Source: Vezdaea acicularis (taxonomy: Eukaryota). Taken from it: a stretch of 58,104 nt of DNA. How positions within the stretch are numbered: the stretch's first letter is position 1; each line of letters starts with the position of its first letter. The stretch covers positions 62,001 through 120,104 of the forward strand of contig JAPEUI010000048.1 of assembly GCA_026025075.1 (NCBI GenBank). The letters run 5' to 3'. Of this stretch, positions 7,946 to 43,913 are shown piece by piece. Under the pieces are notes generated by a model. It saw only the letters and a program-made list of their open reading frames with translations. It did not search any database and was not told the origin of the DNA. The position numbers and the translations under genes were made by a program.

Positions 7946-10298
7946 TTAACCAGACCATCCCAGCCCCTCCAACTCTCCTCGCACACCTTCTTCCGTCGCG
8001 ATCTTCTTCATCTGAGTGTCCTCAAGCTTTTCACCCCCTGCGAGTCTCATCTTCAAATCGTCGATTGCACGCATCTTCTTGAGAAGGCCCCGTATCTTTT
8101 TGTCATGTGAGCTACCCTGGCTATTACTGTCTGGCGAGAGCGCAATTGGCACCTCAATCATTTCCGGAACCTCTGGGGCTGGCGCCGCTGAGGTGACATG
8201 TGAAGCACCTCCCGTAGCAGCTGACTCGTTATTTGACCTGTTTCGAGATCGCGTTCCATTTTCTAGATTGCCTTTTGATCGAGTACGAGAATGTGAGCGA
8301 ACTCGGCGATCTGCACCCTGAATGGGCTCAAATGCAGCATCAGGCGTTAAATTTGATGCTGCCTTTTCAGCTTCCCTCATCTTCTTCGCTTCCCGTCTCT
8401 TCTTATTCTTAAGTGCCACCTTTGAGAGCTGCTCATCGCTTTCAGGCGCAGGAGTGAGACTGACACCACCACCCGGAGCAGCGCCTGGTGGTAAGGGCTC
8501 ACCGGCCACAGGTTCGGAGCCTGGGACATCCTTTTTTTTCCTGCCCATCCCATTGATGTTAGCAGCAAATGACGAGACGCCATTGTTGATATGTGCAGCA
8601 CCACCTTCGTCCTCTCTCTTGAAGTGTAGAGGTGTCACTTGACCTCGAGCTCCAGGTGGTCGATATGCACCCACTGGTTTTGATGGAGTCTTTACTGTCC
8701 CTAAATAAGCTAAGGCGGATGAATGAGGTTTAGGGACCGAGCTGAAGGGGTTGGCTGGAAGTGGGTGGGTCGTAGGTGATTGAGGCCGCCAGGTGACATG
8801 GTAGAGTTCGACCATATCCTCATTGTACATGAGACCACCACCCACATGCCAGATGCGTATACCATTATCGACGCGCAAGCGCGGGCTCGTTGTCGCAGTC
8901 AAGATGCAAGTTCCATCCGGGCTCCAGTTACAGACGCTAGGATTGCCACCTTCAATTGTTGTAACTTTCTGATAGTCCTTCTCAAGATCATAGATATCTA
9001 TCTGGCCGGCAAGGTTGCCGAAACCTGCGACTAATACAAACCGACCATGAGGTGAGAATGATATCGTGTTCCGCGGTCCAAGAGGAAATGAGTGTTTTGC
9101 AGCAGCCCGAACATTGAATATAGTTGTTTTCGCAGGCATCTGTCCATATACCACACCAAATTCTTTTGAGTTAGGGGACCAACTTACATCGTAAATCGGC
9201 CCCTCTCTGTCTACAAATTGTTAGAAATTGGTTCTGTAAGGCTTCCATAGAACGTACCAAGCTGGATTCTTGAGTCAAATCCCCCATTGGCACTCAGGAT
9301 GTAGAGAGTAGTCTCCCCATAGTAGCTCTTTCCCGTTTTATCCACCTCGGTTTGGGCTAGCACAATCAAGCTTGTTCCAAGGCTATTCCATTTCAACTGC
9401 ACCTTGTCGCCCTTGAAAAATGTCTTCTGGGACAACGGAGTCTCGAATTGTGGCACATTAAAAACTTTTACAGCAGCTGGTTGGCCTTTATGTTCAGGGA
9501 TGAAGACGGCAACTGAATGCGTCTTCCCAGGCGATATTGCAAAGTCTTTGACGCCCTCGACTCTGAGCTTGTTCCATACCGTACCAAGATCCCCGCTCTT
9601 GTAGAACTGCACTTCATTGGTGACGACTCTTGCGCAGAATTGCTCGTCCGATGTGTACTGAAGATTCCATCCAGTCTGAGATTTTTGAACAAATTTACCG
9701 ACCGCGACCCGCTCTTGCTCTGTGGTCTCGTCGCTCTCAACAGTCTTCCAAACTTTCAGATTCTTGCTTGAGTCGCCATTTTCATCTTTTGAGGGTCTCT
9801 GCCAAGTGATTATGTGCGTGCCCAAGGGCGAAAACCCAAGCTCGTACACATTCTCTGCAGGTAGAGAGGCTATGGGGAAGCCGACAGAAGCATCAATGAC
9901 AAGAACCCTGGAGTGCTTTAGCTTAATCCAACGCTTGTAGTTTCCTAAATGCACTTACTCCGTCTGCGATGCCCATGCGAAATACCTTCCACAAGGTGAG
10001 TAAGTGCAGCAGCGCAGATTACCTTCCGGTCTAGACGTAGCACCATATTAGCCTGGTAAGACACCCGCGGGGATAGTAACGTATGCTGAAGTGTGGGATT
10101 CTTTATTGGAGTTTCGGTACTACATACTTCTGGAAACCAGGCAAAGGCTCGTACACCGGTGCGGCATCCACAATCCCGATTCCCTTCAAGGTTCGATCTG
10201 TAACTAGTGTGAGCTGCCTCTTCGGGTTCTGAGAGCAGCCTGAGGCTCTTATTATGTGAATGAGCGAACTCACAAGCAAACTGCGTTGGAACGGCCAT
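7946..10298 (-). CDS. Eukaryotic translation initiation factor 2A
   Basis: FSPLGTHIITWQRP, SQKTFFKGDKVQLKWN, TEVDKTGKSYYGET, LVAGFGNLAGQIDIYD, ATTSPRLRVDNG, YRPPGARG and C-terminal KKIRGLLKKMRAIDDLK. Five exons starting MAVPTQFA|YRTLKGI. Confidence 0.95.
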
Positions 10299-12569: not shown

Positions 12570-15500
12570 TCATCGACGGACCTGCTCCAGAGCTTTCTGT
12601 TCCTCATCAATAATCTCCATCGCGGTCTCCAAGTCACCGTCGGCGGCTTGAGCATAAACTACCAGCCTATCTACCCCACCGTCCTCTTCACTACCGAACC
12701 CAAGGGATTTCAACGTCTCAACGCACTTGACCACAGCGCTCACAGTCTCCACATTATTATGCGACCCCGTATCAATGATGGTAGGTGGCTGATCATCAAA
12801 CCTCACCACGCGTTCATCTGGTCTGGATTGTCGGGCCTGAGATTCCGTGGCACTACCTTGCTCTGATCGCACTGACTCAGCACGTCTCTCTGATGAATTG
12901 TCATCGTCATCGTCAAGGGGAAAACGCCCAGGTGTATGCTCGTAACTCTCCAAGAAACTCTCCCAACCCATTCTCCTGTTGCTTCCAATGAATTCAGAGG
13001 CAGGACGACGGCTATTGCTATGAGCTTTGTTTGAGGTTCTGGCGTTTGCGCTACTCAGAGACCGGTTCACGCCGTCTAAGACTCGTTTGCGCGTTGATGC
13101 AAGTTCAATGAAGGGCTCGGCAAGAGGATCGAATGGGCCTGCAAGTCTGGCAGCGTGCTCAAGCTCGGAAGAGTTAGACATTCCAGATGGACAAACAGGA
13201 ACGTCCATTCGTTGGCCAGAGACTCCTTCAGACCAGATTGAGTTCGTGTCAAGAAGGGACGGAAAGCTATTATGTTCAGTCATTTGAGACAAAGGAGGCC
13301 ACGCTCCTGGAATCCTGCTGGGAGTTGCTTGTCCCTCCTCGGCTAGCTTGCCAAGCTCACTAACATACCATGGAGTTGATGAGAAAGGGTTTCGGGAAAC
13401 TTTACGTTCGTCATTGCGCGTGTCGCTGTGGTTTTGAGGCGTCAGAGCAGCAATATAAGGCAGTGGTGAATGGCGAGATTCTCGTCCCTCCAATTGAGAG
13501 ATTGAGGGGAAACGCGTCATCTCAGGTATCTGCGAGTTCTTGTTTTCTCGTTCTGTGAAAGTTGGTTGAAGCTGCTTTGTAAATGGAGACATTATGTCCT
13601 TCTCTTCGCTTGCGCGAGCAATCTTTCTTAAAGCTCCAGTGGTGTTCGCGCGTCGTAGATTTCGGGTTTCTACAACCGGGCTTCCTGTTGTCTTAATATC
13701 GTCGCATGAAGCTAGTAAATCATCTTCAGTGGTCTTCGCGTTAATTAGGACGGGGTTATTAGCTGCTTCGTTGTCTTCAGATTTGGTCGGATCATTGGGT
13801 GAAAGTGGTTTGATCTCATCCTGAGCATCGTCAAGTCTTTGATAACCCCACGCGAGTTCAGCCCTCGAGGTCTGGACATCATCTTCGTCGCTGCTCTGGC
13901 TGTCAAAGCCCTTGAGAGTGCTTCCTTGATTCTTATCTCCAAGGAGATTGCTATTAGAGAGTTTTTCTCTCCAAGAAGGGGCGGCGAATGATCTGTAACG
14001 TCGAAGCGAACTCAACGGATCTTGTTCATAATAGGTAGAAGATTGACGAGGTTGTTGCCTGGTCGATCTCAGGCCTGAGACCGATACTGCAGGCCTCAAG
14101 CTTGGATGCCATGGTTGTGTGCGACCGGAATATGGAGAAGGAAACCCAGTGAGTGGCCGCGAGGAAAGCTGCCCGTCAACACGAGGTGGAAAGCCTCTAG
14201 CAGGCAGCAGACGGAGGGGGCCATTGAGCGGAGCTTGGGGTGGAGGAGGTTGACCTTTCAACGGAGGGAGTGGTGGTGGGGGTGGTGGAGAGGAGAAATG
14301 GCCATCAAACGGTATGGGAGGAGGGGGAAACCGGGCATCGACAAGTGGTAGAGGGGCAGGGCCACCAAAACGCGAAGCAGATGAATGCCCGTTGAGCTCT
14401 CCAGATGGAGGAATAGTTTGCCAAGGCCCCAACGACCCAGGTGCCGCATGAGATGTTGCGGGGGCAAGGGATGCGGGTGAAATGGGAGAATTGGCGTCTT
14501 GATGTCCTCCTGGCTTTGGAGCGGAGGCTGTTTGCTGTTGCTGTTGCCATTTTGCCCAACTTGAAGACGGAGACTTTTTGGTAGGAGAATCTGGCAACGC
14601 CGGCGGGTCATGTGGAAGATGAATTGGACCGTGTTGGCCGAATTGAGGCGGCTCCACAGGGAAAGAAGGCGCCGGTGATCTTACTCTGCGAAAACGCATA
14701 GGTGAACGAGACCGAGGATGTCTGTAACGCCGTCGTGAGTGGTGAGGTGGCCGAACACGACCCCATAAGCCAATTTCAGTATCCAATCTGGGATCAACAT
14801 ACTCGTAAAGCGGGTCATTCATGGTTCTTGAGCGAAGTCTTCTGCTATGACGCCCACGATACACGTCTGCTCGGCGCTCGTAGGGCGACTCTCCAGCTAG
14901 GAATGGGTGATGGGCATATCTATGCGTCTCACGTGATGCTCTAGAAGAGTTCGAACCTGATGGCCTGCTCCTTTGGAGGTAAGGCGCTTGACTCCCATGC
15001 TCGCTGGACGAATGATCACTCTCACCATCAATATCATCGCCAACTTCAATCAAGGTAGTCGGTCCATGACCGAACGTCGTACTGCTAGTTAAGGGCGTTG
15101 GAGGTGCGTCGCTTGTCAAGAAGACATTGTCCAAACCTGTGAAGTTCGCAGATAGAGGCTCTCCTTCGGAATTGGACACCCGTAGCTGGTCTTTTGGAGG
15201 AAGGTTAGGAGGCACGTCGAGCGTTTGTACGTGAGAGGAAAAAACATCTTTAGGTGATGAGGTGCCGGAAAGGTCTCCAGCTTCAAAGGGGCTGGCATCT
15301 TGAGCTATCTCTGCCCCGTCAACGTTCTTGGGCGCAACGTTCGACGGCCGCGAACCACGTGCTCCGAGCGAAAGCACCCCCTGTCCAAGTCGGCCAACGT
15401 CGGCGGCAACGCCTTCGAAGCCATTGACAATGCCTTCAACAGCACGAAGATCTGCATCTCGGGTTATCTCTGCCGCGTTCTTCGCAAAGTCAGATGCGTC

Positions 15501-17137
15501 TTGAGCAGCCTTGGCTAATTGCTCGACATGGTCGCTAAACCCTTGAAATGCATCACGGAAGACTCGCTCCATATTCTGAGGGACCGTATCCCGAATGTTT
15601 CTAATTCGTGCTTCAGCTTCCGGAAGGCCGTGTACAAGGTCAGTGGCAAGATTACTAATTCCTTCCACAACAGATCGAATAACGTGAGCGAAGGTTTCTG
15701 CAGGGTTGGGCTGTGACTCGGTCACTTCCGGGAGGCTCGAATCGGAAGATGGATCTTGCGTTGTGGGCGCTCCTTCCACTCGTTCCTTAGCTCCATTTGT
15801 ATCTGGCTGGGTCGAAGGGGCTGATACTGCTCTCCCAAGTTCGGCTTGGAAGCACCCGAAGAGAGACTTCGAATCGTCTGGAAACTCCGCTACAGAAGAA
15901 ACTTCCTTACCATCTTCCGAGGAAGAGCTAGACGAAGAGGATTCGCTAAACTCGGTGAAGTCAAAGACCTCCGCACTAGCGCCGGAAGGGGTGGGAATAT
16001 CGGGTTTTCCGACATAGGCAGCCGGCTCCTCAGAAGTGCTTTGTAGAGGTTCTGTGCGCTCTTGTTCAGGTCGCCCAATCACCAAACGCTTCTTATTCTG
16101 CTGCTCCAACAACATCAACTGCATTTGGTAGTCCTGAAGGGCATGGTTAGCCGTTGAGGGAGCCTGATGCTGTAGGGGGGCTATGAATGGAGGCTGGCCT
16201 GATTCCTGGTGAGAATTCATCAAACCATTTGGTCGATTCTGCTCAAGCTCTTGTCGTGATGATTCGAAATGTTCTAAACGCCTCCTGCGTCGCTGCTCCC
16301 TCATCTTCTGTTGAGCGTAGTAGTTGTCTGAAGCATTCTTCTGCCCTCGGAGGCATTCAAGTAAATGTCGACCGCCTTCCGGCTGTGAGCGCAGCTCGCG
16401 CAGGAGCTCCTGCGCACGGGCAACATCGTCCGAGGGATCGACTTCCACCTGTACATCCTTGGCCGGGCGAAGAACAGTACTATCTTCCAAGGCAGACAAG
16501 GATGATGCATTGAATCCATTAGGGTTGTCCGCGACGGGAGGCGGGAACTCCAACGCAGACTGTGTTTGGGTGCGATTTCCTTCCACGATATTTCTCCATA
16601 CTTCTAATGATCTAATGGTACGATCGGTATCGAACATGTGCATAGGAGCCGAAATAGGCGACAGCCTTGGGTGTGCGAGCCTTGGGACAGACGGATGCAG
16701 TGGAGAGTTCGTTCGTCGAGGCTGCGGTGGTGCAAGAGGGACTGCTTCTTCAAGGCGCTGCGATAATTCGAACCCAGAGCCAACCTATATAAATGCGTTA
16801 GTAGGTACTTAATCTCAGTCAAGCTTCTAAAGAAATCATCTTATAGGAACGAAGTATCGCTATGTGTTCTAGGACCAAGAAATCGTGACGATGAAGAGTC
16901 AAGAGGACTTGCTTGCATGGTAAGGCTTACTGTGATTATTTCGCCATCATCCTCATCCATGTATGTAAGGGCTGCGTCGGGATGCTGCTGGATTACAGAG
17001 TCATATTCCGTGCTGCTTATCCGAATGACTGCAAGTTCCTCATAAGGGACTGGCGACGAAGTGAAGTCATCACCAACGTCAGGCCCTGCAGGGTTATCTG
17101 ATGCACGAAGTTGGCAAATTCGAAACGGTGGTAACAT
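12570..17137 (-). CDS. Large disordered protein with an N-terminal PB1/OPCA-like motif and a C-terminal UBA-like domain
   Basis: Exon 1 (17137-16931) ends LTYMDEDDGEIIT. Intron 16785-16930 (GTAAGC..ACTAAC..TAG) joins in frame to VGSGFELSQRLEE and the 1357-aa ORF. Internal NHALQDYQMQLMLLEQQNKKRL; C-terminal CVETLKSLGFG...AADGDLETAMEIIDEE. Confidence 0.8.
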
Positions 17138-18404: not shown

Positions 18405-21400
18405 CTAACTCTTCCTTGCCACCATCGCCATCAGCAGCTGGTGGAGGCCATTCTCACCGTAGTAATAAGTATCTTCATCTATCTTTCGTAACTTTGCGTG
18501 GCGCTGTTCAAGGAAAAGGATCTGGTTCCAAGCGTGAACAAGGCAGTCAGGCAAACGTAGGACATCTCCCTTCTTCGCTAATATCCTGCTTAGACGAGGT
18601 ATCCTCCCCACGGTTGGGTTTTTTGCGTCAACCTGTCCATCTCCATCTGTATTGTTGGGTGGATAGTAGTACTGAGCGGCTAGATCACGGAACTCGGCAA
18701 TAATGCTAGGGAGAACGTGAATTCGCTCAGCAGTGACAAAGTCAACGGCAACTTTAATCGAGCTTCGACCGTTGGTGACTTGGTGAGGGCACCCAGCTGG
18801 AATAAGTACAGCATCTCCCGGTTCCTGGTGGATCAAGTAGGACTTTGTATATCCCCACCGCTCAGTATTCATCTCCGCCAAGTCTTGGTCGCTCAAATAG
18901 TGTTTTTGCCTATTAACAGGATCATCGATATTCCTTTCAGGGTATTTGTAGCGGAGGTAGTTATTGAGCATATCTGAACTACCTGGCTGCCAGATATGCC
19001 ATATGGCCGCGGGCTTATAGCAACTTGGTTCGATCGGATCGTTAGAATCATCGTACCTTACTTCGTACTCTTTCCCCTTTTGGGCCCTTTCTTCTAATAT
19101 TGGTGCTGGCGAAGCATAGATCATAATGTTGATCGCACAGGTCACGTCTTTATGCAAATTAGTCGTACCAATCCCATCTAACCCTTTGGGGACTTCGTGA
19201 CCATTATCCCTAGGCAGGAATCGAGGAGCAGGATAAGCGCAATATGCTTTCGGACCTAGATCCGGTCTGAGGAAATCGGGTGGAAAGTAGGCCCCTAAAT
19301 TAAGCAAGCCTTCCCGCGACATAAAAGCTGGAAAAGGAAGTGCTCTTTCAAAGTCTTCGAAAAGCTCTGGGAAGTAATCTTTGAAATCTGCATTAGGGGG
19401 CCAATCCTATGATAGACCCATTAGCAAGTGTGCAAGGTTGTCTCCTTGTCTAGACTTACTTTCAGCTTCAAGCTTCTCACTTGGCCTCTATATGTACTAT
19501 GCCTAAAACCTTCAAAGAAGTCGTAAACTCTCTGGTTGTCTATGACCATGTCATTACAGCAGTCGACCAGTGCACATTTTTCTTTACTCTTTCCCTCGAT
19601 GAATTCAGTCGGATCCCATCGTCGATCCATACGATCTAGCATGCCTTTAACAATCAAGGGCTTTCCTAGCTTGGGGTCTCCTCCCAAGAACCAGGTACTT
19701 TGGAAGAAAGCCGTTTGGACCTTCAGTTGCTCATGTGATTGACTTCTGGACTGATAAATGATGTCTGGCCCAGGCAGGTGATTGCTCCCGATATCCGGCG
19801 TAGTGTGTGAAAGGATCTTGATACCGAAGGGCCTTGGGTTTCGAAGAATTTCTTCCTCAAGCCCAGTGTATTTCAATCTGAAGCGCTTCAGGGTACCCAC
19901 AGATGGCAGAGAACTCTTGTGGATGACTCGGTCCGCTTGCTTAATGTTCTCACGAACAAGCATATAGAACTGGTATTTTGTGTGGCGCATCCTGTTGAGA
20001 CATTGATGAACTCGAGGGATGAAGTAAGCCACTGTTCCTAAGATGTCGCTCTCGCTCTCGAGAGGAGCATGGAGGGGAGAACGGCTATCGCCCGAAGTTG
20101 ACATCGATGAACTATGCTCACCATTTTGCTTCTCTGGATCAGTTGACTGCTTAATTTCTTCTTGATACCGCTCGACTGAGTCATCAATCAACTGCCAACA
20201 CTTCTCGCAGAGCTCTTTCCCACAAGCTACGCAAACCCAAGACCCTAGGTAGCACGAGGCGGCGCACGCATCACAAGTCACCCTTTCGTCTTTCGTACTG
20301 TTTCGAAAGACAATAGGACATCGGAACGGATAAGAATCCTCCGTCGTACGAGTCTCACCTTTAACCGGGTCGTTGTAAGACTTGGTAGAGACATACGGTG
20401 AGCTTAGTAGATCCCTGAGAACAGGAGCCGTGAGGGCTTTAATATCATGAAGGGCATCAGCATGGCTCTTATATGATCCGGAGACGTTTGAGTCCACATT
20501 TGGAAAATCGTAGAGGTCATGTAAGTCTTTAGCAGGTGCCGAAAGACTGCATTCTCCAAGGCTATGTTCCCAATTGGCTATTTCGTTGTCGTGACGTTCA
20601 AGTGCTTGATATCCTGTCATATCACCAAGCAAGATCCAGTTTTTCAGATCTGGCCATTCTGCGCCTCTGAACCCCTCAATTGCAGGACGGAAGGTCTTCG
20701 GAATTTTGCGCCCGGGCTGCGCATTTGATTGGACTACAATCTCCCCAATTTTCTTGTAACCTCCAATATTGCGCTGATTAGGTTCAAATCTATCGATAAC
20801 AGACCCGCTTTGCACGGCAGCGAAGGCACGAATGTCTTTGAATCGACAAGCTCCACTGTCCGCTGCCTTTTCGGAACAAGCTGTACATTTGAGAGGAGTG
20901 CCGTTGCAGCTCCAGTGCTCAGACTTGTGTGGCTGTAGTCCATTGCATGGTTTCTTCTGCACAAGATAGTATGGGTTAGGCCGATTAGTAACGAGTCTTT
21001 TCGTCTTGATCCATTCTACATCGGGATGTTTCTGGGCGACAGCCGGAGTAAGTAGTTGAGCTGTTCTGTCAAATCTGCCGCGCTTCTGGTCGATGATTTG
21101 TTCCAGCTGTTGGAAGGCTTTTATTTTGGAGACCTCGATGTTGATTCCTAGTTGAGAATCAGATTTGGTGCACTCCTTGTCTTCAACTTGCTGCCGCGAC
21201 TCTACACCACCACTATGCTCTGAACGTGGTTGGAGATTACGTTCGCTTGCGTTAATTTGGGTTGATAAACGCATAGGATTATAGAGGTCATCTACTTCGA
21301 CATAGGCTTCATCAGTCCGACGTCGCTTTGTGGAACTGGGGCAGGACGATGGCTCGCTGTCAGATCCATGCCTTCTCTTTTCCGGGCCGGGTCTGCTCGG

Positions 21401-21490
21401 TATGGAGTTCATGGACAGATCTGATTCAGTTCCACCTTGCATGGTTCCTGAGCTCGATTTGTTCGGAGTTATATGATCTATCCGATCCAT
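18405..21490 (-). CDS. KDM3/JMJD1 (JHDM2)-family JmjC histone demethylase with Cys-rich zinc finger
   Basis: CTAC...CRFKDIRAF, CDAC...WVCVACGKELCEKC, LKLK|DWPP (intron 19407-19459, GTAAGT..GCTAAT..TAG), RPDLGPKAYCAY, TTNLHKD, AIWHIW, QEPGDAVLIPAGCPHQVTN and IKVAVDFV. The Fe-binding HxD...H triad is intact. The 3' end may extend to 18316 via a further intron. Confidence 0.88.
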
Positions 21491-22528
21491 CTTCGGTTTG
21501 TTTTCGTATTTACCCCACCTCCCTCAACTTTCTACTTGGCAAAATTTATTATCAGCGCTATTTGACTTCTGGATGATCGTGTGAAAGGTGATTGACGGCT
21601 GAGACGAAATCCTTCGTGAAACGCAGATACAAGAGTGGCGAGTGATTCAAGGAGGGAAGCCGAGAGCAACCTACTAACCAGGCAGTCCTAATACCCAGCA
21701 CCTACAGCCCTGCAAGCACCTTATTACTGGTGGGAAGGCTCTAGAAGCTTTGAGGAGATGGTCTTTATGGCGACTCCATTCCTAGTTCAGAGTGTCGTTT
21801 TGGTCTTGCGAAGGGACGTAGCTGAGAGCTATGCTCTCCTTGTATGATTCATTGGTCTCGTGTGTGGGTGTTTCGTAAACTTCACATTTGTCTTAATATG
21901 ACAGCATTGTGTTGAAGTGCTGTGGGGTCTTCTGGCGCTATACAAGGCGAGGACGAGCGAAGAGCAAAGTAGATTCAAAGGCTTGGCATGAAAGACGCGT
22001 CTCGACGCCAGCCGACGCTAGTGCTCGCGTGTCTTTTAAGCTTAAAATCTATGGCGTTCCAGAGCCTGAAGAGAAGCCCAACGAGATGCTGGCTGAGCGC
22101 TTCCGGGAGATCGCCGCGGGAAATTTTTCAGATATTTTGTAGCAGCAAATTGTTCTACTTGTGGTTCTCTCGAGCTATACACGTAGCTTCAGCTTGTAAT
22201 GAAATGAGTACTGCTATTCGAAGGCATTTGGCTTGCCAGGCTAGTCCTTTGCCTTCTCCAGCGGAAAAGATGATGACATTTCCAACGCTTGTGATGCGTA
22301 TTGCGTCACCGCCTATCCTCACGGACCCAACGTCTCTCTCAAATTAGAAGCCTAACAACAAACCGCAGATTTACCACAGCCTGAGAGCATTTGAGAACTT
22401 GTAACTCACTAGAAAAAAAGTTCTGGTATCCTGAATCAAGAGAACTCCCAATCTTTCCAGTCATAGTTGCATTTGTTTGATCTCAGCCATTGTTTGGCAT
22501 ATCGACATCTACCCCAATTACTGCAAGT

Positions 22529-25665: not shown

Positions 25666-28128
25666 TCACGTGAGTTGTATCCCCACCGTGACATCTCGGG
25701 CAACTTCACAGCCCCTTCGTATAACCTCCTTCTCCTTGTTCTTTCGAATAAGATCACTTCGCGATACAGTCCTCTTGAGAAATGTCCTTAAACTTCTTGA
25801 TAGATCAGGTATACTTCGAACATCAAATATATCAGCCACCATCCCCGCTTCGTCCCCAGCATCCGGACCCCCTTTTGCATGTAGGAAGATCGTGATCATC
25901 AAGACCTCAAGGAACGTCGAAGTGGTGTGCTGTAGAGATTTGAAGTTTAGCTTTCGAAGAGCTGAGAGACCCATCCCCTTTCCAGCAATGATAATTCCGA
26001 ACATCTTCGCCAGCTTGAAGATAGCGTCCGTATCCAATTGATCATCTTCGTAGTCCTCGGCGCTATCATAAAGGGAATCCTCACCCATCTGCTTGAAGAT
26101 ATCCCATAACCGGCACTTGAAGTGAAACTCCATCTTGAGATGGGTCTCAAAGCACATCTTTCGCGCAACTGTTGCGTAATAAGGGTTCGGCTTGGCTTCC
26201 GCTTTGCAGCAGCATATTAGAACTGTTGGGATCTCCTGCGTTTTGATTTTCTTGATTCTAAGCAGCTTCATGAGCTTCATATGAGCGTCCTTAGCATCAG
26301 ACGCCGACATGATGGTGATAAATATAATCCGCCGCACTTCTGTATTCATCCCCCAGTCCTTTGCGATCTGAGACAGGGCAGCAACCCCACTGTCAAGCTC
26401 CACATCCTTTAAGCGGTCCAATTGCCCATGGTGCCCCTCTTTGATTATGGTCTTAGGTGGGTCACCGGTGTGGTTATCTTTCCAGCTTGCACCAACTAGC
26501 CACCATTTCCCATCGCTATCTGCACTCCGGATATGCTCAAGCCCCACGCCCAGTGGTTCCGTGGCCCGGAGTGATCTCGTGTTTAGTGACCCTAGGGTCT
26601 TTTTCATGGCCGTGATATGCTCGGATGCAATCGAAGATGCCAATATCCCGGTCTTCATGCGGTTATTCTTCAAGTTATTGATTGTTTCAATCATGAATTT
26701 CGTTCTGATAGACAGATTCGCTTCCCCAACCCGATCAACAGCGGTTCGAAGCATAACGACTATGTCCTTGAGTGCAGATGTGCCGTCTGCAATGGTATCC
26801 TGTCGCAATTGCGGTCCCGAATTTCGGACAACTTTCAATATTAGCTCCGTATTGATTTCGGTGATTTCAGCAAGGAATTGCCGTAGATAGTCGAATATCA
26901 ACCTCTTCCCGATTACTTGAAAATTATACAGGTGGGAGAGGAGGGCTACGAGATTCGTCATCCCCTTTCCTAAATCCTGTCTCCCAGATTCTGCGTATCG
27001 CAAGTCGAATCTTTCAATAATCGATTGAACAGTTTGTGCTCCAAAGTCCTGGCCCACGACCTTGTAGATTGCTGCAATAAATCCCGCATGCAATATGATA
27101 AAGTTGTCTTCATGGGCAGCATCCTGAGAAACTAGGCTAATCAGAAGGTCCACCAAGTTTGAAGTGATATACTGCCTCGCGTTTTCGCGGTACAAGCGCT
27201 CTACATCTCCCAAGATGGAGAGGATGTTGGCCCCAGATATTCTGTTCATGAGACCCTGGAGTTGGCGCCGAAGTCGTAGTAGAAGCTCTGTATCATCTGA
27301 TTTCGACCTCCTCAGCGAGGGAGGAACATACTTTGCGGATTGCGAAGGAGAGGTGACCGCGGCAACGTAGGGATTCTCCCTCTTTTTGGGTGGCAAATCA
27401 GAGACCGAATTGTCAAAATCAAAGCTCTCAAAAGAAGCTTCATCGGAATCTTCCTTGCTTTTGTCAGACGCCTCTGAGTTCCCCTCCAGCTCCGACCCCT
27501 CGACCTCGTCGGCGCTGTCCGTCCCTCCCTTATGTGCATAAAGCGTAGCTTTCAGCCTCTTACTCTCCAGCCACTGCCCATCCACAGCATCTCTCTTCCT
27601 CTTACCAGGCTTCCGTCCATCTTCCTCGGGTTCTGAGCCATCAAGTCCATCAAGCAGTAGATCCAAACCGTCCTCCTCAAAATCCTTCGACAGCTTTTTG
27701 TTCTTAAGCTTTAACTTCTTCTCAAGTGCCAATATCTCCGTGTCATCCTCACTCAGCTTTGCTTTGACGCCCTTAGATAGTCGAGGCGGCGGAGACAGCG
27801 AGTCCCTCTTACGTGTAGGCTCTACTCTTATGGAGGTCTTAAGTATAGACTTCGGGAGGCTCGAAAACTTGTGCAAAATTTTCTCCCCTTGGCTGTCGTC
27901 TGCCGTCTCTTGCTCCTTGTGTTCCTTGTACCGAAGAGAATGTTGGGCTCCCTTACTCGACCTTCTCCTTTGGCTGCTCACGACCTTCTCCGTTCGCTCC
28001 GCTTTTCTCCGTGCCTTTCTCCCCAACGCACCTTTTTTTGCCTGATACGAATTCCCTCTATTTCCCACTCCAATCTCCTCTCTCAACCGTTTTGGCAAGC
28101 TTGTGGTATCATGAGGTTGCCTGCCCAT
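25666..28128 (-). CDS. SGD1: Sgd1/NOM1 nucleolar MIF4G + MA3 domain protein
   Basis: 820-aa ORF with KYVPPSLR, LQGLMNRIS, LLSHLYNFQVI, NSGPQLRQD, RTKFMIETINNLKNN, GKWWLVGASW and MNTEVRRIIFITIMS. Confidence 0.93.
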   Translation of the reverse strand: MGRQPHDTTSLPKRLREEIGVGNRGNSYQAKKGALGRKARRKAERTEKVVSSQRRRSSKGAQHSLRYKEHKEQETADDSQGEKILHKFSSLPKSILKTSIRVEPTRKRDSLSPPPRLSKGVKAKLSEDDTEILALEKKLKLKNKKLSKDFEEDGLDLLLDGLDGSEPEEDGRKPGKRKRDAVDGQWLESKRLKATLYAHKGGTDSADEVEGSELEGNSEASDKSKEDSDEASFESFDFDNSVSDLPPKKRENPYVAAVTSPSQSAKYVPPSLRRSKSDDTELLLRLRRQLQGLMNRISGANILSILGDVERLYRENARQYITSNLVDLLISLVSQDAAHEDNFIILHAGFIAAIYKVVGQDFGAQTVQSIIERFDLRYAESGRQDLGKGMTNLVALLSHLYNFQVIGKRLIFDYLRQFLAEITEINTELILKVVRNSGPQLRQDTIADGTSALKDIVVMLRTAVDRVGEANLSIRTKFMIETINNLKNNRMKTGILASSIASEHITAMKKTLGSLNTRSLRATEPLGVGLEHIRSADSDGKWWLVGASWKDNHTGDPPKTIIKEGHHGQLDRLKDVELDSGVAALSQIAKDWGMNTEVRRIIFITIMSASDAKDAHMKLMKLLRIKKIKTQEIPTVLICCCKAEAKPNPYYATVARKMCFETHLKMEFHFKCRLWDIFKQMGEDSLYDSAEDYEDDQLDTDAIFKLAKMFGIIIAGKGMGLSALRKLNFKSLQHTTSTFLEVLMITIFLHAKGGPDAGDEAGMVADIFDVRSIPDLSRSLRTFLKRTVSRSDLIRKNKEKEVIRRGCEVARDVTVGIQLT

Positions 28129-28448
28129 CGCATGTATCTCCGTTCGAGGAAGTGTGCAAAAAAGTTCGCTAAAGGTTTCGATAAGTTCAGGTTAAGTCTT
28201 TCCCCGCCATTTTGCGAACTCGAAAAATATATCACCACCAAGCATTCGCCGATTACAGGAAGCGGCGCTCTTTCGACCTGTATCAAACCCCGGCTATGGA
28301 GACGGTCCGAACTTCGCGAGTCTGAGAGCTGCTAACCGCTGATCTAAGTGCGCTCTACGCTCTGCCTTTAGCACTTACGGCGCACAATCTCGAGTCGGAC
28401 CACCATCTCTTACCCGAGCGTTACCAACGGAGCTATTTTCCACGCAAC

Positions 28449-38572: not shown

Positions 38573-40075
38573 ATGTCTAGGCATGTTCTGACGACGGTAA
38601 ACCATTCAATTGGCACCTTAACCCCTGGACAACAATACCTGCGCCTCCCTTTTCTATATCAGACTCGTACGCTCCACCAGGTCCTCCGCCTTCAACATCA
38701 GGAGCATGGCGACATCGTCGCCAACTCCCTCCATACAAAGGAGGCAGTGTACGAGCCTCTAGGGCGACCCCTTTTGGATCAGCAGTCCCAACTTTCGGAC
38801 ACGGGGCAGACGGAGTACCAGCCTGTGAGGTCTGTGCCTTTAGATCAGCCACGCAGGCGTGCAGAGACTCCTGTGGTTAAGAAATATGTCCCTTGGCGGG
38901 AAAGAAGACGGCGTCCAAAAAGAAATCCCCTCGAGATTCAAGACATCTTCCCCTACGACACCACGGAAACAACTCAGCATGTGGGGCGGCGTCCGGCTTT
39001 TCGACGTGCACTCGATTCGCCAGCTATAAGCTACTATTATGATCCGTCCACAGAAGCAGCAGAAGCGGATGGCTCTCCAATCCGTCCTAAGCGCCTCTCG
39101 AGTCTTACTACGAGCGAAGCAGAGAGCTTCCAGCGCCTTCTCTCATCTATGAATATGCCGTCTCTCTCGTCCTCACAAATCCCCAGCGTCTTCACCGAAT
39201 CCAGCCCAGCCTCCGAAACTACGCAAACTTCATCGGTAGAATCCCTAGATGCGATATTTTCTGAGATAGCTGCGCTTCCGAGATGGGAAATCGACGCGGA
39301 AGCACAGCAAGCAGAAGCTACGCCAAGCAAAAAGAAAAAGGACGAGAACGATATAACTAAGTTAAGGCGCATTGAACGGTCGATGGGCTTTACTGAGAAT
39401 GTTGCTGCGTTGTGGACCATCCTTGAGGAAGAAGTCTTCACTTTGATCGCGCCCCTCCTCTCCGCTCTCAATGCTAAGAAACGTGGAAGGCCTAAGAAAG
39501 GAGAAACGCCTGCTGAGTCTTCCCTCACGCTCCCTAAGAAGGCACTCGCGACAGCCTCTCGCGTCTACCCACCCCTACTCACCCTCGCCCTCCGCCTCTT
39601 CCTCCAGCGCTTCCAGTCGCCACAGCCGGCACTTCTCCTCTACCAGCGCGTGAAAAGCATGGGACCGATCTCGTACGCCCTGGGCGCTAGCACGGACCTC
39701 TACAACCTCCTTCTCTATCTACAATGGCACTTCTACAAAGACTTCCGGGCCATATCCGCCCTACGGGAGGAGATGGAAGACGCCGGCGTCGAGCCCGACT
39801 CGCGCACCGTCCGGCTGCTAGCAGAGATGGTGCGGCGCGGCGACGTGATGGCGCGCGGGATGGAGCGCCGCGGAAAGCTCATACTGGATATGCTTGGTTG
39901 GAAAGAAGGATTGCTGGGTTTGAAGGCCTGGCTGGAGGAGATGAGGGAGTTGGAGAGGTTGAAGGCGAAGGAGCCCAGGGCGTTGGAGAGGAATGTTAAG
40001 GTTAGGGAGAGGAGAAGGAGGGCGGCTGCTAGGGCGGCAAGGAAGGAGAGGGTCTATGATCCGATGCTTCGTTGA
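38573..40075 (+). CDS. Mtf2-like mitochondrial protein
   Basis: Presequence-like LPFLYQTRTL, SSLTTSEAESFQRL, LWTILEEEVF, YPPLLTLALRLF, and VKSMGPISYALGASTDLYNLLL...EMEDAGVEPD, which is typical of fungal Mtf2-family C-termini. Confidence 0.8.
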   Translation: MSRHVLTTVNHSIGTLTPGQQYLRLPFLYQTRTLHQVLRLQHQEHGDIVANSLHTKEAVYEPLGRPLLDQQSQLSDTGQTEYQPVRSVPLDQPRRRAETPVVKKYVPWRERRRRPKRNPLEIQDIFPYDTTETTQHVGRRPAFRRALDSPAISYYYDPSTEAAEADGSPIRPKRLSSLTTSEAESFQRLLSSMNMPSLSSSQIPSVFTESSPASETTQTSSVESLDAIFSEIAALPRWEIDAEAQQAEATPSKKKKDENDITKLRRIERSMGFTENVAALWTILEEEVFTLIAPLLSALNAKKRGRPKKGETPAESSLTLPKKALATASRVYPPLLTLALRLFLQRFQSPQPALLLYQRVKSMGPISYALGASTDLYNLLLYLQWHFYKDFRAISALREEMEDAGVEPDSRTVRLLAEMVRRGDVMARGMERRGKLILDMLGWKEGLLGLKAWLEEMRELERLKAKEPRALERNVKVRERRRRAAARAARKERVYDPMLR

Positions 40076-43000
40076 TAGCCGCTGCTGAAGTCCTGGGCTA
40101 GAATTGCGTCTATTCAAAGCAAGTACGTCCTTATCATCATCCTTGTCATCGCGAGCATGCTGTGTCGATCCAAGCATCGCCTTCATTTGGCCAGATGGCC
40201 CAGCTCTCTGCGTCGAAGCGCTAGAAGTCGTGAGCAAGGGAGCCGGCCTGTTGTCCGAGTTTGGTTTGCCTTTCTCCCAAGATTCCCGGATGGCCACGCC
40301 TAGACTCAGCGCGACGCACCGATCAACGCTGTTGCCAACAACATGCCATTGGTTTGCGGCATACCCAATGAGGACATCAGTATCATTGAAATTTTGGGCG
40401 CGACGAGCCTCCATCACCGTGAGCAGGCGGTGCTCGTCCCAATGGAGGATCGTGCCGGTAAAAGCGCACGACGGCTGAGCTGCTGTAGTAATCGTTGGTA
40501 TCAGACCATTGGGATCGACGCGTCGCCACGATTTTGAGTCCTCTCGGACCTTGAAGCGATTTGTCCAACCAAAGCTCTCCAAGGAATGTTGAGTAAATCG
40601 TCCAGCATTGAAGGCACTCATATAGCTTGAAGAGCGGGGGCACATAGGAATCTGCGATATCATATTGCGATTTATGGCAGACTCAATGCGAGAACACCGA
40701 TGGTCTGGATGCGATATACACGTACGAGGATGGCCATCTCCGATGTAGGGTAGGTCCTTGGTTAACTCTTTAGCTGTGATGAAGTCGAAAGGCGTCACAT
40801 TGTGCTGTCGAGACCCATAGCTGACGCCATTGGTACCCTTACCAATCGAAGAATTTCCCTTCCCTTCAGGGTGCGAATGCGTAAGAGGCGGATGCGGTGG
40901 CAAATCGTATCCTGGAGCGGCTATCGAGATGAAAACCCGTGTCCGACTTTGAGCGCTTCCACAACTCCAAGCGTCGATGTAGAACTGCTGTACTTGATAG
41001 CCCATCCCGACTAGTGAGCAAATCAATTGCGCGAAAACATCTGTCTCTTTGCTCTTTGCACCTTTCTTCGCAATCCCACGTACGTTCTCCATTAGCCCAT
41101 ATTTTGGGCGGTAAAAATCGACAAATGCTGCGACTGAAGCCACCAAAGATATGTTAGCAAGGGATTTGTCACTAGCCTTCCGATTATTCGCAGTAGAAAA
41201 GCCTTGGCAAGGACTACCGGCAGAGATGAAGTCAACCTCGCCGGGTGAAGGAATATAATCGGAGAAGTCGCCCTTCATAGCTCGAGCTAGGAAGTCGTTA
41301 ACGGAACCAAGGAATAGCTTTGTATCCTCTGCCTCCTTCAAATTTGCATGGTAGGTATGCAGGGGTGTCGAGTCGTAATCGACTGCCCATTTATTCCGTA
41401 TCGCGCCGCCGTCTTCAAGTCCTCTTCCAAAATTTCCACCTCCGCAGTACAGGTCCATACCATTAAGATAGGGCCGTTCAGGTGCAGCATCAGGATCAAA
41501 ACCTTGGTTCAGAGAAGTGGGGAATGGTGTCTTTAGCGGTAGCAAACGTTGCACTGGACCATCTCCAACCTCATGCGAAGTGATGAAGAAACAGTTCGCA
41601 GTGCCGTTCTTGTCATAGGGCGAAGGAATCAATTTCGCCTGTCGTTGTGCTTCAGTATAGAATCGGACGTGACATGCGTCGGCAACGTTCTTTGCTGGTA
41701 CGAGGTATAGATTGTTGGTATATACTAGCTCGTTCCTCTTCGCATCATTCGAGTCCTCGTAATCCCTTGCCCGTCTCTTCAGTCTTCGTGCGCGTACGTA
41801 TTCCTCTGCACCCTCTGTAAGGAACTCAACAATCTCAACAGGTTCAAGTCTATCTCGTTCCCCTCTAGCTTTCGTCAGGACCAAGACCGTATCGCCAATC
41901 TTGTACTTCTCCATGACATCTTCAAGATCCGACTTCAGGAGGTTATCACATTTGCACCTGAATGCTGATCCCTTAAGAGTAACGAAAGATGCATTGTCGC
42001 TCTGGTAACTTTGACGGACAAAAAATTCAGCACCTGTAGAGTCGGGTTGGGCGTGAAAAGCTACAGATGGCTTGCAACACACATCGTCGAGGGTAAAAGG
42101 ATCACTCCCACAATTGCAGTTATCGGACATAAAGAGCTCGTTGCTATATGGATAGTGGGCGACCTCACAAGTTGTATCAGATGGCTCGTAGAGCCACAAG
42201 ACTTTGAGTCGGTAACTTCCATCTTTTCGTTCTGCAATACCTTGGACGTAGGCATACCAGATAGTCGTCCTACCCTTCCAACTAGTGCCCTGGTCGCGCG
42301 CCGTCCCAACCACATCGCCGACTTTAACACTAGTAGGTCGAGTCGGTATGATATTTCCGCTTTTGTCGCGAGGCATTCGTGTAGGACTTTGGACGACGGC
42401 GCCCACTAGTTGTTGCCTGGCTGCCTTAGCTCTAGCTTCGAAATCCGGGTCAAAATCTAGCTTGCTTCCGGTAGGTTCGTATATATTGTGGGATACAGGA
42501 AAGTTACTTTCGGTTTTATGATCCGGAGGTCCGCGACCTGCGAGGCTGCCATTCATCCGCGGTTGCTCATCGGCTGTAAGCCCCAATGCATCTTCTTGCC
42601 CATGTCTCGCATGAGCGACATGAGGAGTGGGGATCTTTGCCGACAGAAAATGAGCCCATGGCATATGTTTGAAGCAATCATAGACATATTGCGTTACAAC
42701 TGTCTTCGGTTGTGTGAGCGGTTGCTTTCGGATTGCGTCCAGATACCTCTGAACAATCTCTCTCCATATAGGGTGGTTTGTAATTTCGTTAGAAAAGTTG
42801 GCTTCGTCGATACCATATGCTTCCTTAAGAAGGAAGTCTGGATGGGCGGCGCATACCCTCCGAAAGTCCGTGCAATCGTATTGCGCAAGCCATTCTTGAT
42901 ACGCCACATCATCGCTATGGAGACTGTTTGTAAACTCGAAAAATCTGACTCGGAAATCATGTATTGTTACCCGCTCATTATTTTCAAGGTAATCGATAAA

Positions 43001-43913
43001 GTACTTGGCGAACCCTGCGAGCCACATGAACGCGTCATGGTATCGCGCATATTCGGGAGCAGGTGAGCCGAGTCGGTACCATATATCACAGTGGCTACCT
43101 AAGGAAGACTGAATCCAGACCTGGTTGCTGACTGAGTGATTCTCGATACCATAGTTTCCAATCGAAACGACCTTAAAGGGTATCCTCTGGACGTAGTATT
43201 GGCTTCCGCCACGTCGGAGGATGCCGTCGAAGAAGTGATATGAACTCGCTTGAATCGCAGCCTTGAGGTGGTGCAGAGGGGTGAACTCGTCAGAGTGGTT
43301 CCCATAATGGTCTTTGTAAACACAAAAGTCGACTAGCTCTATGTCCACATCTTCGTCTAATATTAAGTCGTCAATGCTGCCGCTTTCGGATGAGGTCTCG
43401 TCTATGGCTACTTTCTAGAACGTCGATCAGACTTGGATCTCTTGGGCAAAGGGGTCTGGGCTCACTTTGAGTTGAGCTATCACGCTTGCCTCGCTTGTGA
43501 CCTCTAGAGGGGGTTGCCAGCCATCGTATAGCGATTTTGGGTAACACATCTCACCGACTGACATACTAGTGAGCGTCGTGACAGGTTGAGGTAACGCTGA
43601 CGCCAGTGCGTTTTCTACATCTTCGCGGTCTTCGAGAGTCGTAGCGATGTTGCGGCCGTTTGTAACATGTTGATTGTCACCAGTGCTGCCCCCGGCCGTG
43701 GAGGCCGATGCCGAGTGACATATGTTGCGTCTGGCAATGTCCTCTCGTAGACTATGCATGATCGTGTTCGTTGCCTCTCCATCTGTAAGATCAAAGTCGG
43801 GTTAGTTCTCGTGTCATCAAGAAGGCACCATGGAAGAGCTGAAATCCAAGTGGGGAAAGTGCTCCACTATAGGTGGAGGAGAACTACGTACCCAGAAGAA
43901 TATTGGAACTCAT
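39818..43913 (-). CDS. dim-2: DIM-2-type C5-cytosine DNA methyltransferase (two BAH-like domains plus DNMT catalytic domain)
   Basis: Motif I MDLYCGGGNFGRGLE, motif IV SAGSPCQGFS, motif VI LMENVRG, motif VIII QSRTRVF, and motifs IX/X LTVMEARRAQNF / VGNSV. BAH signatures VLWLYEPSDT and ELFMSDNCNC. Introns 43783-43891 and 43415-43465 give an in-frame start MSSNILL at 43913. Confidence 0.93.

Follow-up and report, generated by a model that had tools for sequence, protein, structure and literature searches.

The window, that is, the whole 58,104-nucleotide stretch of Vezdaea acicularis DNA that was analysed (contig JAPEUI010000048.1, positions 62,001 to 120,104), carries on its minus strand a KDM3-family gene composed of two exons, 21490..19460 and 19406..18405, which together encode 1010 amino acids. 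Two neighbouring minus-strand open frames (19421..21523 and 18405..19406) are linked by an intron of 53 nucleotides, and splicing joins 677 and 333 codons into a reading frame of 1010 codons with 0 internal stops, in which the first ATG lies at 21490 and the TAG stop at 18407..18405. The span of 18405-21490 given in the preliminary description is exactly that of the coding sequence. The possibility of further introns within the weakly conserved insertions was considered and rejected, the other sets of donor, branch and acceptor sites being such that they would remove the zinc finger or the DWPP block. The features of the gene are the following.

19460..21490, minus strand: exon 1, codons 1-677 (ATG 21490..21488, open frame, splice donor, checked translation)
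19407..19459, minus strand: sole intron, 53 nt, GTAAGT ... CTAAT ... TAG, interrupting the LKLK/DWPP motif, which splicing restores as LKLKDWPP
18405..19406, minus strand: exon 2, codons 678-1010 and the TAG stop at 18407..18405 (open frame, Pfam JmjC, PDB match to KDM3B)
21317..21379, minus strand: basic stretch KRR-x14-KRRR, residues 38-58, possibly serving as a bipartite nuclear localisation signal (from the sequence)
20840..20887, minus strand: Cys element CxxC-x9-CRF, residues 202-217 (aligns with most fungal orthologues and a fish KDM3B-like protein)
20198..20275, minus strand: KDM3-type zinc finger CxxC-x8-WxCxxC-x4-CxxC, residues 406-431 (fish BLASTP, alignment, hhalign)
19460..19705, minus strand: N-terminal part of the catalytic domain, residues 596-677, before the intron (BLASTP against the fish protein P0277, E 2e-7)
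18663..19406, minus strand: JmjC core, residues 678-925 (PDB search, alignments, AF2 model, Foldseek)
19154..19152, 19148..19146 and 18785..18783, minus strand: iron ligands H762, D764 and H885 (aligned to KDM3B, codons verified)

The roughly 130 N-terminal residues of the protein are poorly conserved among its relatives. The Cys element, CTACSEKAADSGACRF, is conserved from fungi to fish, as judged from the alignment with the fish KDM3B-like protein (P0277), and the zinc finger has the sequence CDACAASCYLGSWVCVACGKELCEKC. The preliminary description had placed seven residues before the Trp of this finger; the pattern is indeed present, but the spacer consists of eight residues, as it does in the fish protein, to which the zinc-finger block is related with an E value of 5e-5 in BLASTP. 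The zinc finger of animal KDM3 enzymes is of the C2HC4 type; its His is replaced by Ser in Vezdaea and, in the alignment, is not conserved in most fungi. When the fungal and plant N-terminal profiles were compared with hhalign, only the zinc-finger region was aligned (probability 68%, E 4.8e-5), whereas MAFFT pairs a portion of the zf-4CXXC_R1 domain of plants with the fungal CxxC...CRF element, which may be a remnant of that domain. A Pfam scan of exon 1 at E<=0.1 returned 0 families; among those not found at this threshold are Tudor_KDM3B and PWWP_KDM3B, both present in P0277, and zf-4CXXC_R1 (PF10497), which is matched by the plant proteins P0043 and P0057.

The catalytic domain is divided by the intron. 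On the upstream side, residues 607-664 can be matched to positions 32-90 of the crystallized KDM3B construct (E 0.026), and in exon 2 the Pfam JmjC family PF02373 is recognized with an E value of 6.5e-7. All seven motifs named in the preliminary description were found in the 1010-codon translation in the order proposed there; in addition to the two Cys-rich elements they are LKLKDWPP (residues 674-681, spanning the intron), PDLGPK (725-730), TTNLHKD (758-764), IPAGCPHQVTN (879-889) and KVAVDFV (895-901). The JmjC domain can be aligned with that of human KDM3B/JMJD1B over about 240 residues, with H762, D764 and H885 in register with the His, Asp and His of the human enzyme, and in a 40-sequence alignment the two His positions do not vary and the Asp position hardly does. 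In a PDB sequence search with the JmjC part, all seven distinct sequences recovered at E<=0.001 were KDM3B or JMJD1C, the best being KDM3B at 8.7e-38, a match that chance would not give. An AF2 model of the JmjC core has a mean pLDDT of 80.6, and the first 10 PDB structures that Foldseek ranks against it are again all KDM3B or JMJD1C (E 8.6e-19 to 2.4e-14); the next family, KDM5B, follows at 3e-6, 12 orders of magnitude weaker. The nearest Atlas clusters, with a score of 0.95, are plant JmjC proteins and one named ‘JmjC domain-containing histone demethylation protein 2B’ (JHDM2B). The PDB search, the motif set and Foldseek thus agree on a JmjC protein of the KDM3/JMJD1 type with an intact iron triad, as had been proposed from the letters of the sequence.

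The order of the elements (Cys element, zinc finger, pre-JmjC block and JmjC domain) is colinear with that in KDM3, and in BLASTP the zinc finger and the pre-JmjC block occur in the same order as in P0277, the CxxC...CRF element being common to the two proteins. The Vezdaea protein differs from the animal enzymes in its size (about 1010 amino acids against 1781 in the fish protein), in the Tudor and PWWP domains that were not detected, in the His to Ser exchange in the zinc finger and in the substitutions D767C and H842N. Plant KDM3 proteins (IBM1/JMJ25, JMJ26) likewise have a zinc finger as well as a JmjC domain, placed at the C terminus, with KDM3-type motifs, and their JmjC identity to Vezdaea is about 29-33%, but they carry zf-4CXXC_R1 and/or WRC in Pfam, where the Vezdaea exon 1 has no match; a supplementary table of PMC10538959 includes a column headed ‘zf-4CXXC_R1+JmjC’. 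The term animal/plant-style, applied to the gene at the outset, is therefore apt for the core, comprising the Cys element, zinc finger and JmjC domain, but not for the accessory domains. Xylona heveae L228DRAFT_267001 belongs to the same family, has the same layout and shows 53-57% JmjC identity to Vezdaea; the nearest fungal relative is matched with an E value of 1.3e-83. Compared with the deposited fungal orthologues, the protein from Vezdaea (Vezdaeales), a lichen-type fungus, has a longer, poorly conserved N terminus and several private insertions.

By extrapolation from animal and plant members, the protein would be a nuclear Fe(II)- and 2-oxoglutarate-dependent dioxygenase of the KDM3 (JHDM2/JMJD1) family, in which the Cys element and zinc finger on the N-terminal side precede a C-terminal JmjC catalytic domain, and it would remove mono- and dimethyl groups from H3K9 through hydroxylation of the methyl groups and so oppose H3K9me-dependent silencing. 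Against this stands that H3K9me3, to our knowledge, is not a substrate of the animal KDM3 enzymes. The silencing mark in Neurospora is H3K9me3, as stated in an excerpt of PMC9023284. In animals KDM3A/B remove H3K9me1/2, and the plant members share the layout of zinc finger and JmjC domain, according to the available text of PMC2579438. A literature search found no study of activity, expression or localisation for any fungal KDM3; isolates of a Vezdaea species have been established, according to PMC13616976. By this analogy, H3K9me1/2 demethylase activity of the Vezdaea protein is on balance probable, and a role against silencing through the H3K9me-HP1-DIM-2 pathway is inferred, the one new observation relevant to it being a DIM-2 gene elsewhere in the window. 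The explanation as a whole, namely a KDM3 orthologue of vertical descent that erases H3K9me1/2 and belongs to a family lost in the crown classes of Pezizomycotina, is given a probability of about 0.65.

The principal competitor to this explanation is that the KDM3-family protein is no longer an H3K9 demethylase and serves as a scaffold, as a reader, or as a hydroxylase or demethylase acting on another substrate. The lineage-specific substitutions D767C and H842N lie in highly conserved columns (Asp in 186 of 192 family JmjC segments and His in 167 of 192, respectively), and the zinc-finger His has not been kept. The activity of JMJD1C/KDM3C is debated, as indicated in part of PMC7280979; neither DMM-1 nor Epe1 has shown demethylase activity, in the account given in the accessible portion of PMC9023284; and a 2026 paper (PMC13149330), from the text at hand, describes a different chemistry of KDM3A, on acetyl-lysine. 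However, the metal triad is retained together with the consensus residue at 55 of 62 columns with at least 85% conservation across the 192 segments, and the PAGxPHQVxN and KVAxDF blocks are unbroken. Two of the seven departures from the consensus, moreover, are common to a clade of genes with long open frames: the Cys at 767 is shared with four Geoglossomycetes, and the Asn at 842 occurs in 11 sequences in all, including those of Xylona, Peltula, four Geoglossomycetes and Tuber, C909L being found in the Vezdaea sequence alone. Such sharing agrees with a functional enzyme whose pocket has been tuned, and loss of H3K9 demethylation is considered unlikely, though it is the alternative with the greatest weight. 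That the gene is an unexpressed relic heading for loss is much less plausible still: KDM3 has been lost repeatedly in Ascomycota and the protein collection holds no entry identical to Vezdaea KDM3, whereas the DIM-2 encoded in the same window, about 20 kb away, is 100% identical to a deposited Vezdaea acicularis protein, but the 3033-nucleotide frame is free of stops and is interrupted by a canonical intron, and the catalytic and zinc-finger residues are conserved.

The preferred reading, an orthologue inherited by descent, bears directly on the origin of the gene, for which either ancestral retention or horizontal acquisition had been suggested. A maximum likelihood tree was calculated from 52 rows and 297 columns, comprising only KDM3-type sequences of animals, plants and fungi, and so without non-KDM3 JmjC outgroups and without a DMM-1 sequence. 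In this tree Vezdaea, Xylona, Peltula and three Geoglossomycetes form one clade (support 100/99) that is sister to Orbiliomycetes and Pezizomycetes; Pezizomycotina (100/97) and Ascomycota (95/95) are recovered, and Ascomycota and Basidiomycota are sisters (87/95). The Vezdaea gene thus lies inside Pezizomycotina, Ascomycota and Fungi, in the order of the species tree. Horizontal transfer, with a plant, animal or basidiomycete as donor, might be suspected from the animal/plant-like motif set and from model ascomycetes being without relatives, but the gene tree matches the species tree down to Pezizomycotina, and union of the Vezdaea gene is rejected in approximately unbiased (AU) tests at p 0.0021 for plants, 0.0026 for animals and 0.028 for Basidiomycota, the groupings for these tests having been chosen with the free tree already known. 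The short intron is of fungal type, and the GC content of the gene, 0.477, may be compared with 1-kb stretches of the window that mostly lie between 0.44 and 0.62. Because the tree follows the species tree and union with plants or animals is rejected, the gene is taken to be inherited and not transferred: the retained-ancestral half of the original suggestion stands, horizontal origin has next to no likelihood, and membership in the KDM3 family together with vertical descent can be accepted with great confidence.

The protein might instead correspond to Neurospora DMM-1 (or to Epe1/KDM2) and not to KDM3, as DMM-1 likewise joins a JmjC domain with Cys-rich domains and works at heterochromatin borders. 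This is scarcely conceivable, however: the Vezdaea JmjC domain lies towards the C terminus, at residues 596-925 out of 1010, unlike that in the DMM-1 layout as far as this is described, no KDM2/PHF8-type chain was found at E<=0.001 in the PDB sequence search with the JmjC part, and published trees, in the portions accessible, separate DMM-1 from the KDM families (PMC4949671, PMC9676040). By architecture the protein is not of the DMM-1 or Epe1 type, and the layout of DMM-1, as described in part of bioRxiv 10.1101/2023.01.30.526367, sets it apart from Vezdaea KDM3. DMM-1 and Epe1 may nonetheless be functional analogues, being JmjC proteins that limit how far H3K9me heterochromatin spreads, according to an extract of PMC9023284.

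The distribution of the KDM3 family in fungi is uneven. When 1.84 billion representatives were scanned in full with HMMER, 129 matches reached E<=1e-30, and the taxon survey rests on the best 150 of 1702 HMMER matches, with E 8e-30 as its lower edge, so that divergent crown-class relatives could fall below this value. Thirty representatives were looked up and 20 of them bore names; none of the 20 came from the crown classes of Pezizomycotina, all being from Pezizomycetes or Orbiliomycetes, Dipodascopsis, Basidiomycota, zygomycetes, Glomeromycota, chytrids or fish. In a word-indexed protein search, 0 of 18 named ascomycete matches were from crown classes; this search missed animal KDM3B despite its PDB E value of 1e-37, and claims of absence do not rest on it alone. 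Among the matches listed there were no named relatives from Sordariomycetes, Eurotiomycetes, Dothideomycetes, Leotiomycetes or Lecanoromycetes. DIM-2 from many crown-class genera was retrieved from the same database, and coverage of those classes is therefore not the limit. Proteins missing from metagenome-assembled genomes are weak evidence of absence, as Vezdaea KDM3 itself has no identical entry. In the accessible parts of JmjC surveys covering A. nidulans, N. crassa and 109 proteomes (PMC4949671, PMC9676040), a KDM3 group is not listed. Both the lack of KDM3 in model ascomycetes and the patchy ascomycete spread, which had been named beforehand as support, are borne out to this extent, relatives occurring in some classes and none being named from the crown classes among the matches listed.

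In Basidiomycota, zygomycetes and chytrids the family is broad, and orthologues have been deposited as ‘Jmjd1a protein [Coprinopsis cinerea]’, ‘Lysine-specific demethylase 3A [Neolecta irregularis]’ and ‘Similar to Lysine-specific demethylase 3B [Pyronema omphalodes]’. The proposal of an undescribed system cannot be upheld, given these names of the KDM3/Jmjd1a type and the wide occurrence of the family in non-model fungi; the Vezdaea gene is a new member of the known KDM3 family, which has an uneven distribution. This distribution suggests that KDM3 is ancestral in fungi and was lost on the lines to Sordariomycetes, Leotiomycetes, Dothideomycetes, Eurotiomycetes and Lecanoromycetes, and that it would have been kept in Taphrinomycotina, Lipomyces-type yeasts, Orbiliomycetes, Pezizomycetes, Geoglossomycetes, Xylona, Peltula, Trizodia and Vezdaea. 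An older review (PMC2442719), in the part available, describes fungi as lacking the JHDM2 family, but the Vezdaea gene and its relatives say otherwise.

For the window alone, the gene is a matter of routine annotation. Fungal chromatin textbooks rest on yeasts, Neurospora and Aspergillus, and the Vezdaea gene and its relatives point to KDM3 as an ancestral fungal enzyme that persists in many less-studied lineages, including lichen-forming and truffle-type ascomycetes that also have DIM-2. They supply a concrete candidate for a catalytic eraser of H3K9me1/2 in fungi with DNA methylation, and a clear pattern of KDM3 loss that can be compared with the rise of DMM-1-type boundary control. In plants, IBM1 limits genic H3K9me2 and non-CG methylation, as described in sections of bioRxiv 10.1101/2023.01.30.526367 and PMC2653724. 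A bolder and rather doubtful proposal is that fungal KDM3 is an ancestral, IBM1-like guard whose catalysis protects genes from H3K9 methylation and from DNA methylation of the DIM-2 type. If so, Vezdaea, Xylona, Geoglossomycetes, Pezizomycetes and most Basidiomycota would still use this guard, crown Pezizomycotina, having lost it, would have come to rely on LSD1 and non-catalytic boundary factors such as DMM-1, and the containment of heterochromatin in Neurospora would be a derived state and not the general fungal one.

The proximity of the KDM3 and DIM-2 genes in Vezdaea was considered as a meaningful linkage and rejected. In Xylona, Peltula and Trizodia, the three relatives listed with both, the two proteins are recorded on contigs that differ in length, and since the linkage is conserved in none of the three, it is treated as coincidence. 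In a search of sequencing runs with the window, no matches from RNA were listed; the DNA matches, with shares of 0.63-0.82, were to contigs that bear the label moss metagenome and come from one study that may be the window's own source.

The KDM3 gene lies on the minus strand and consists of two open frames separated by a short intron, encoding a protein in which a basic stretch and seven motifs can be located.

19421..21523, minus strand, upstream open frame (open-frame scan)
21490, minus strand, first ATG of the upstream frame
19459..19407, minus strand, 53-nt intron with GTAAGT at its start, CTAAT inside and TAG at its end
18405..19406, minus strand, downstream open frame (open-frame scan)
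18407..18405, minus strand, stop codon TAG
Residues 38-58 of the protein, basic stretch KRR-x14-KRRR
Residues 202-217, 406-431, 674-681, 725-730, 758-764, 879-889 and 895-901 of the translation, in order, CxxC...CRF, zinc finger, LKLKDWPP, PDLGPK, TTNLHxD, IPAGCPHQVxN and KVAxDFV

Removal of the intron fuses ...LKLK in frame to DWPP... and gives a coding sequence of 3033 nt (1010 residues) with no internal stops. In a scan for donor, branch and acceptor signals, the sole candidates for extra introns would remove the conserved zinc finger or the DWPP block, and the two-exon model was therefore kept. The seven motifs named in the preliminary description were all found in the order that it stated, and their window coordinates were verified; the zinc-finger pattern is present, but the spacer preceding its Trp is of 8 residues, not 7, as it is in a fish KDM3B-like protein.

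The sole Pfam family in exon 2 is the generic JmjC domain (PF02373, E 6.5e-7), and exon 1 has none at E<=0.1. When exon 2 was compared with all PDB sequences, all 7 distinct matches at E<=0.001 were KDM3B or JMJD1C (top match E 8.7e-38 across ~240 residues), and in the alignment the metal ligands of KDM3B are in register with the His and Asp of TTNLHxD and the His of PAGxPHQV. Exon 2 was modeled with AlphaFold2 from a 40-sequence alignment (mean pLDDT 80.6, pTM 0.77); in a Foldseek search of the PDB with this model, KDM3B or JMJD1C took every one of ranks 1-10 (E 8.6e-19 to 2.4e-14), ahead of KDM5B as the next-best family (E 3e-6). The TM-scores are only ~0.55, in part because exon 2 does not include the first ~100 residues of the crystallized domain. 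The start of that domain is encoded in exon 1, where residues 607-664 can be aligned to positions 32-90 of the KDM3B construct and residues 595-677 match the fish KDM3B-like protein (E 2e-7). The protein Atlas neighbors of exon 2 are plant JmjC clusters and “JmjC domain-containing histone demethylation protein 2B” (score 0.95). The zinc finger matches that of the fish protein (E 5e-5) and a plant profile (hhalign probability 68%, E 4.8e-5), and the CxxC...CRF element is kept in the fish protein as well as across fungi. In contrast to animal KDM3, the Vezdaea protein has no Tudor or PWWP domain (Pfam, with the fish protein as comparison), and it differs from plant KDM3 in having neither zf-4CXXC_R1 nor WRC domains (Pfam); where the animal finger has His, the Vezdaea one has Ser, at a position that the alignment shows to be variable across fungi. 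The proposed KDM3 identity holds, based on the PDB sequence matches, the Foldseek ranks and the motif set.

The JmjC domain was scored over 62 columns that are >=85% conserved among 192 distinct family segments, and the Vezdaea protein matches the consensus in 55 of these. The seven departures are Y705F, D767C, I841V, H842N, L856M, S902T and C909L. The Vezdaea protein shares D767C with four Geoglossomycetes (the column has 5 Cys versus 186 Asp), and H842N is found in 11 sequences, with Xylona, Peltula, Geoglossomycetes and Tuber among them, so that in sequence comparison both look like features of a lineage rather than decay. The original observation of an intact KDM3-type gene was confirmed.

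A word-indexed protein search (584-2000 aa) gave 58 matches at E<=1e-5 from 2424 candidates; this search is insensitive, because it missed animal KDM3B. Its 18 named ascomycetes were Xylona (53% identity with Vezdaea), four Geoglossomycetes, Peltula, seven Pezizomycetes, Neolecta, Saitoella, Taphrina, Lipomyces and Dipodascopsis, and none of the 18 was from the Sordario-, Leotio-, Dothideo-, Eurotio-, Lecanoro- or Arthoniomycetes, class membership being presumed for all matched ascomycetes except three taxa that were looked up. The other matches were 6 Coemansia or Entomophthora, 8 unnamed, and 25 plants and Chlorella. All 1.84 billion cluster representatives were scanned with HMMER, which yielded 1702 matches at E<=0.001, of which 864 reached E<=1e-10 and 129 reached E<=1e-30; the distribution drawn from the scan rests on the best 150 of the 1702, reaching E 8e-30. 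Organisms were looked up for 30 representatives from this list, and 20 were given names: Trichophaea/Wilcoxina, Pyronema, Kalaharituber, Dactylella (Orbiliomycetes) and Dipodascopsis, 10 Basidiomycota (Agarico-, Ustilagino-, Tremello- and Pucciniomycotina), Tieghemiomyces, Acaulospora, two chytrids and the fish KDM3B-like protein. A search at 183-583 aa gave 21 matches, adding Orbilia, Paraglomus, Dimargaris, Neoconidiobolus and two further basidiomycetes. A 556-aa protein from a Trizodia sp. MAG (P0348) matches exon 1 over ~540 residues (32% identity, E 3e-80) but reaches only 55 residues into exon 2 (62% identity), ending at PDLGPKG; from its sequence, either the gene model or the gene itself would be truncated. 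No protein identical to Vezdaea KDM3 was found in the 15-billion-protein collection (584-2000 aa, 183-583 aa and the HMMER representatives), so that it apparently has no protein record of its own. The annotation on deposit seems to have overlooked the gene, although the neighboring DIM-2 protein is present.

39821..43414, minus strand, DIM-2-type cytosine-5 DNA methyltransferase (1198-aa frame with DNA_methylase, DUF7893 and BAH domains)

This frame is 100% identical to “MAG: DNA methyltransferase Dim-2 [Vezdaea acicularis]” (P0059). The same database contains DIM-2 homologues from Lachnellula, Zasmidium, Aureobasidium, Alternaria, Clonostachys, Bombardia, Thermoascus, Xylographa and many lichen-forming Lecanoromycetes, and the classes of these genera are therefore well covered. 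One study gives the JmjC families of A. nidulans as KDM2, KDM4, KDM5, KDM8, jmjd6-like, dmm-1-like and AN0128, in a tree that took in N. crassa and both model yeasts (PMC4949671), and a 109-proteome survey (94 Aspergillus species plus outgroups) describes six groups, none of them KDM3 (PMC9676040). Together with the search results, among the best 150 of 1702 matches in the case of HMMER, these surveys bear out the suggestion that KDM3 is absent from model ascomycetes. A 2008 review describes JHDM2 as “not present in fungi” (PMC2442719), which is out of date because fungal KDM3 matches were found. It should be noted that absences among lichen relatives are weak evidence, because metagenome-assembled genomes, that of Vezdaea included, have annotation gaps.

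Vezdaea is placed by NCBI taxonomy in Pezizomycotina, leotiomyceta incertae sedis, order Vezdaeales, and by a 2025 phylogenomic paper in a redefined Lichinomycetes (PMC12238968). Matches were obtained in 203 of 205 scanned sequences; removal of one partial segment (P0183) and collapse of 10 duplicates left 192 for FastTree. Every unnamed ascomycete-type top match was placed in the group of the Pezizomycetes, that of Lipomyces or that of Taphrina, and none joined the Vezdaea group. A maximum likelihood tree of 52 selected rows and 297 columns (LG+C20) agrees with the species tree: Ascomycota (95/95) contain Taphrinomycotina (96/89), Lipomyces-type yeasts (100/99) and Pezizomycotina (100/97), with Vezdaea, Xylona, Peltula and three Geoglossomycetes forming a group (100/99) that is sister to Orbilio- plus Pezizomycetes, and Ascomycota and Basidiomycota are sisters (87/95). 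In AU tests, with groups chosen after the free tree was known, union of the Vezdaea group with plants (p 0.0021) or animals (p 0.0026) was rejected, as was, only marginally, union with Basidiomycota (p 0.028). Horizontal transfer, one of the two origins first proposed, is therefore unsupported, whereas the other, retained ancestry, stands; judged from these sequences, the Vezdaea gene is a fungal KDM3 by vertical inheritance.

The gene thus belongs to a known family whose fungal orthologues are deposited but unstudied, and the suggestion of an undescribed system is not upheld. In the literature searched, with partial coverage, neither a functional study of any fungal KDM3 nor a paper on the pattern of KDM3 loss in Ascomycota was found. 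The chief value of the finding lies in the phyletic pattern and in a testable IBM1-like hypothesis for fungi retaining both KDM3 and DIM-2.

From the observed residues and elements we infer a substrate, activity and targeting for the Vezdaea enzyme. By homology, Fe(II) would be bound through His762, Asp764 and His885, and 2-oxoglutarate and O2 would be used to hydroxylate the N-methyl groups of H3K9me1/2, with release of formaldehyde. The zinc finger and Cys element may aid folding or chromatin targeting, and the basic stretch could be a nuclear localization signal. The Neurospora DNA methylation pathway involves DIM-5, HP1 and DIM-2, with H3K9me3 as the silencing mark (PMC9023284), and IBM1 limits H3K9me2 and non-CG methylation in Arabidopsis genes (bioRxiv 10.1101/2023.01.30.526367). 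A pathway of the Neurospora type is plausible in Vezdaea because a DIM-2 gene is present, and by analogy it could be limited by KDM3 as by IBM1 in Arabidopsis. Counted against this reading are the nature of the Neurospora mark and the fact that animal KDM3 is not known to remove H3K9me3.

The DIM-2 gene is ~20 kb from the KDM3 gene, a linkage that looks coincidental because the records of Xylona, Peltula and Trizodia have the two proteins on contigs that differ in length. Between the two genes is a sharp-edged AT-rich island of ~0.9 kb (~34060-34950; GC 0.21 versus ~0.5 around it) without a long open frame, which may be the relic of a repeat, RIP-like or degraded, or simply an AT-rich intergenic tract. 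Four housekeeping neighbors are present:

48098-52966, minus strand, Mto1/centrosomin-like protein (Cnn_1N + Mto2_bdg)
25669-28191, minus strand, MIF4G/MA3 protein
7949-9220, minus strand, eIF2A
5485-6951, minus strand, Lgl-like WD40 protein

Directly downstream of the KDM3 gene is an uninterrupted 1404-aa frame (12573-16784, minus strand) with no Pfam family at E<=0.001 and weak Atlas neighbors in unnamed basidiomycete clusters (top score 0.78). At the end of the window (57001-58000), the GC content is 0.62 with a strongly negative GC skew (-0.445), and several open frames overlap on both strands.
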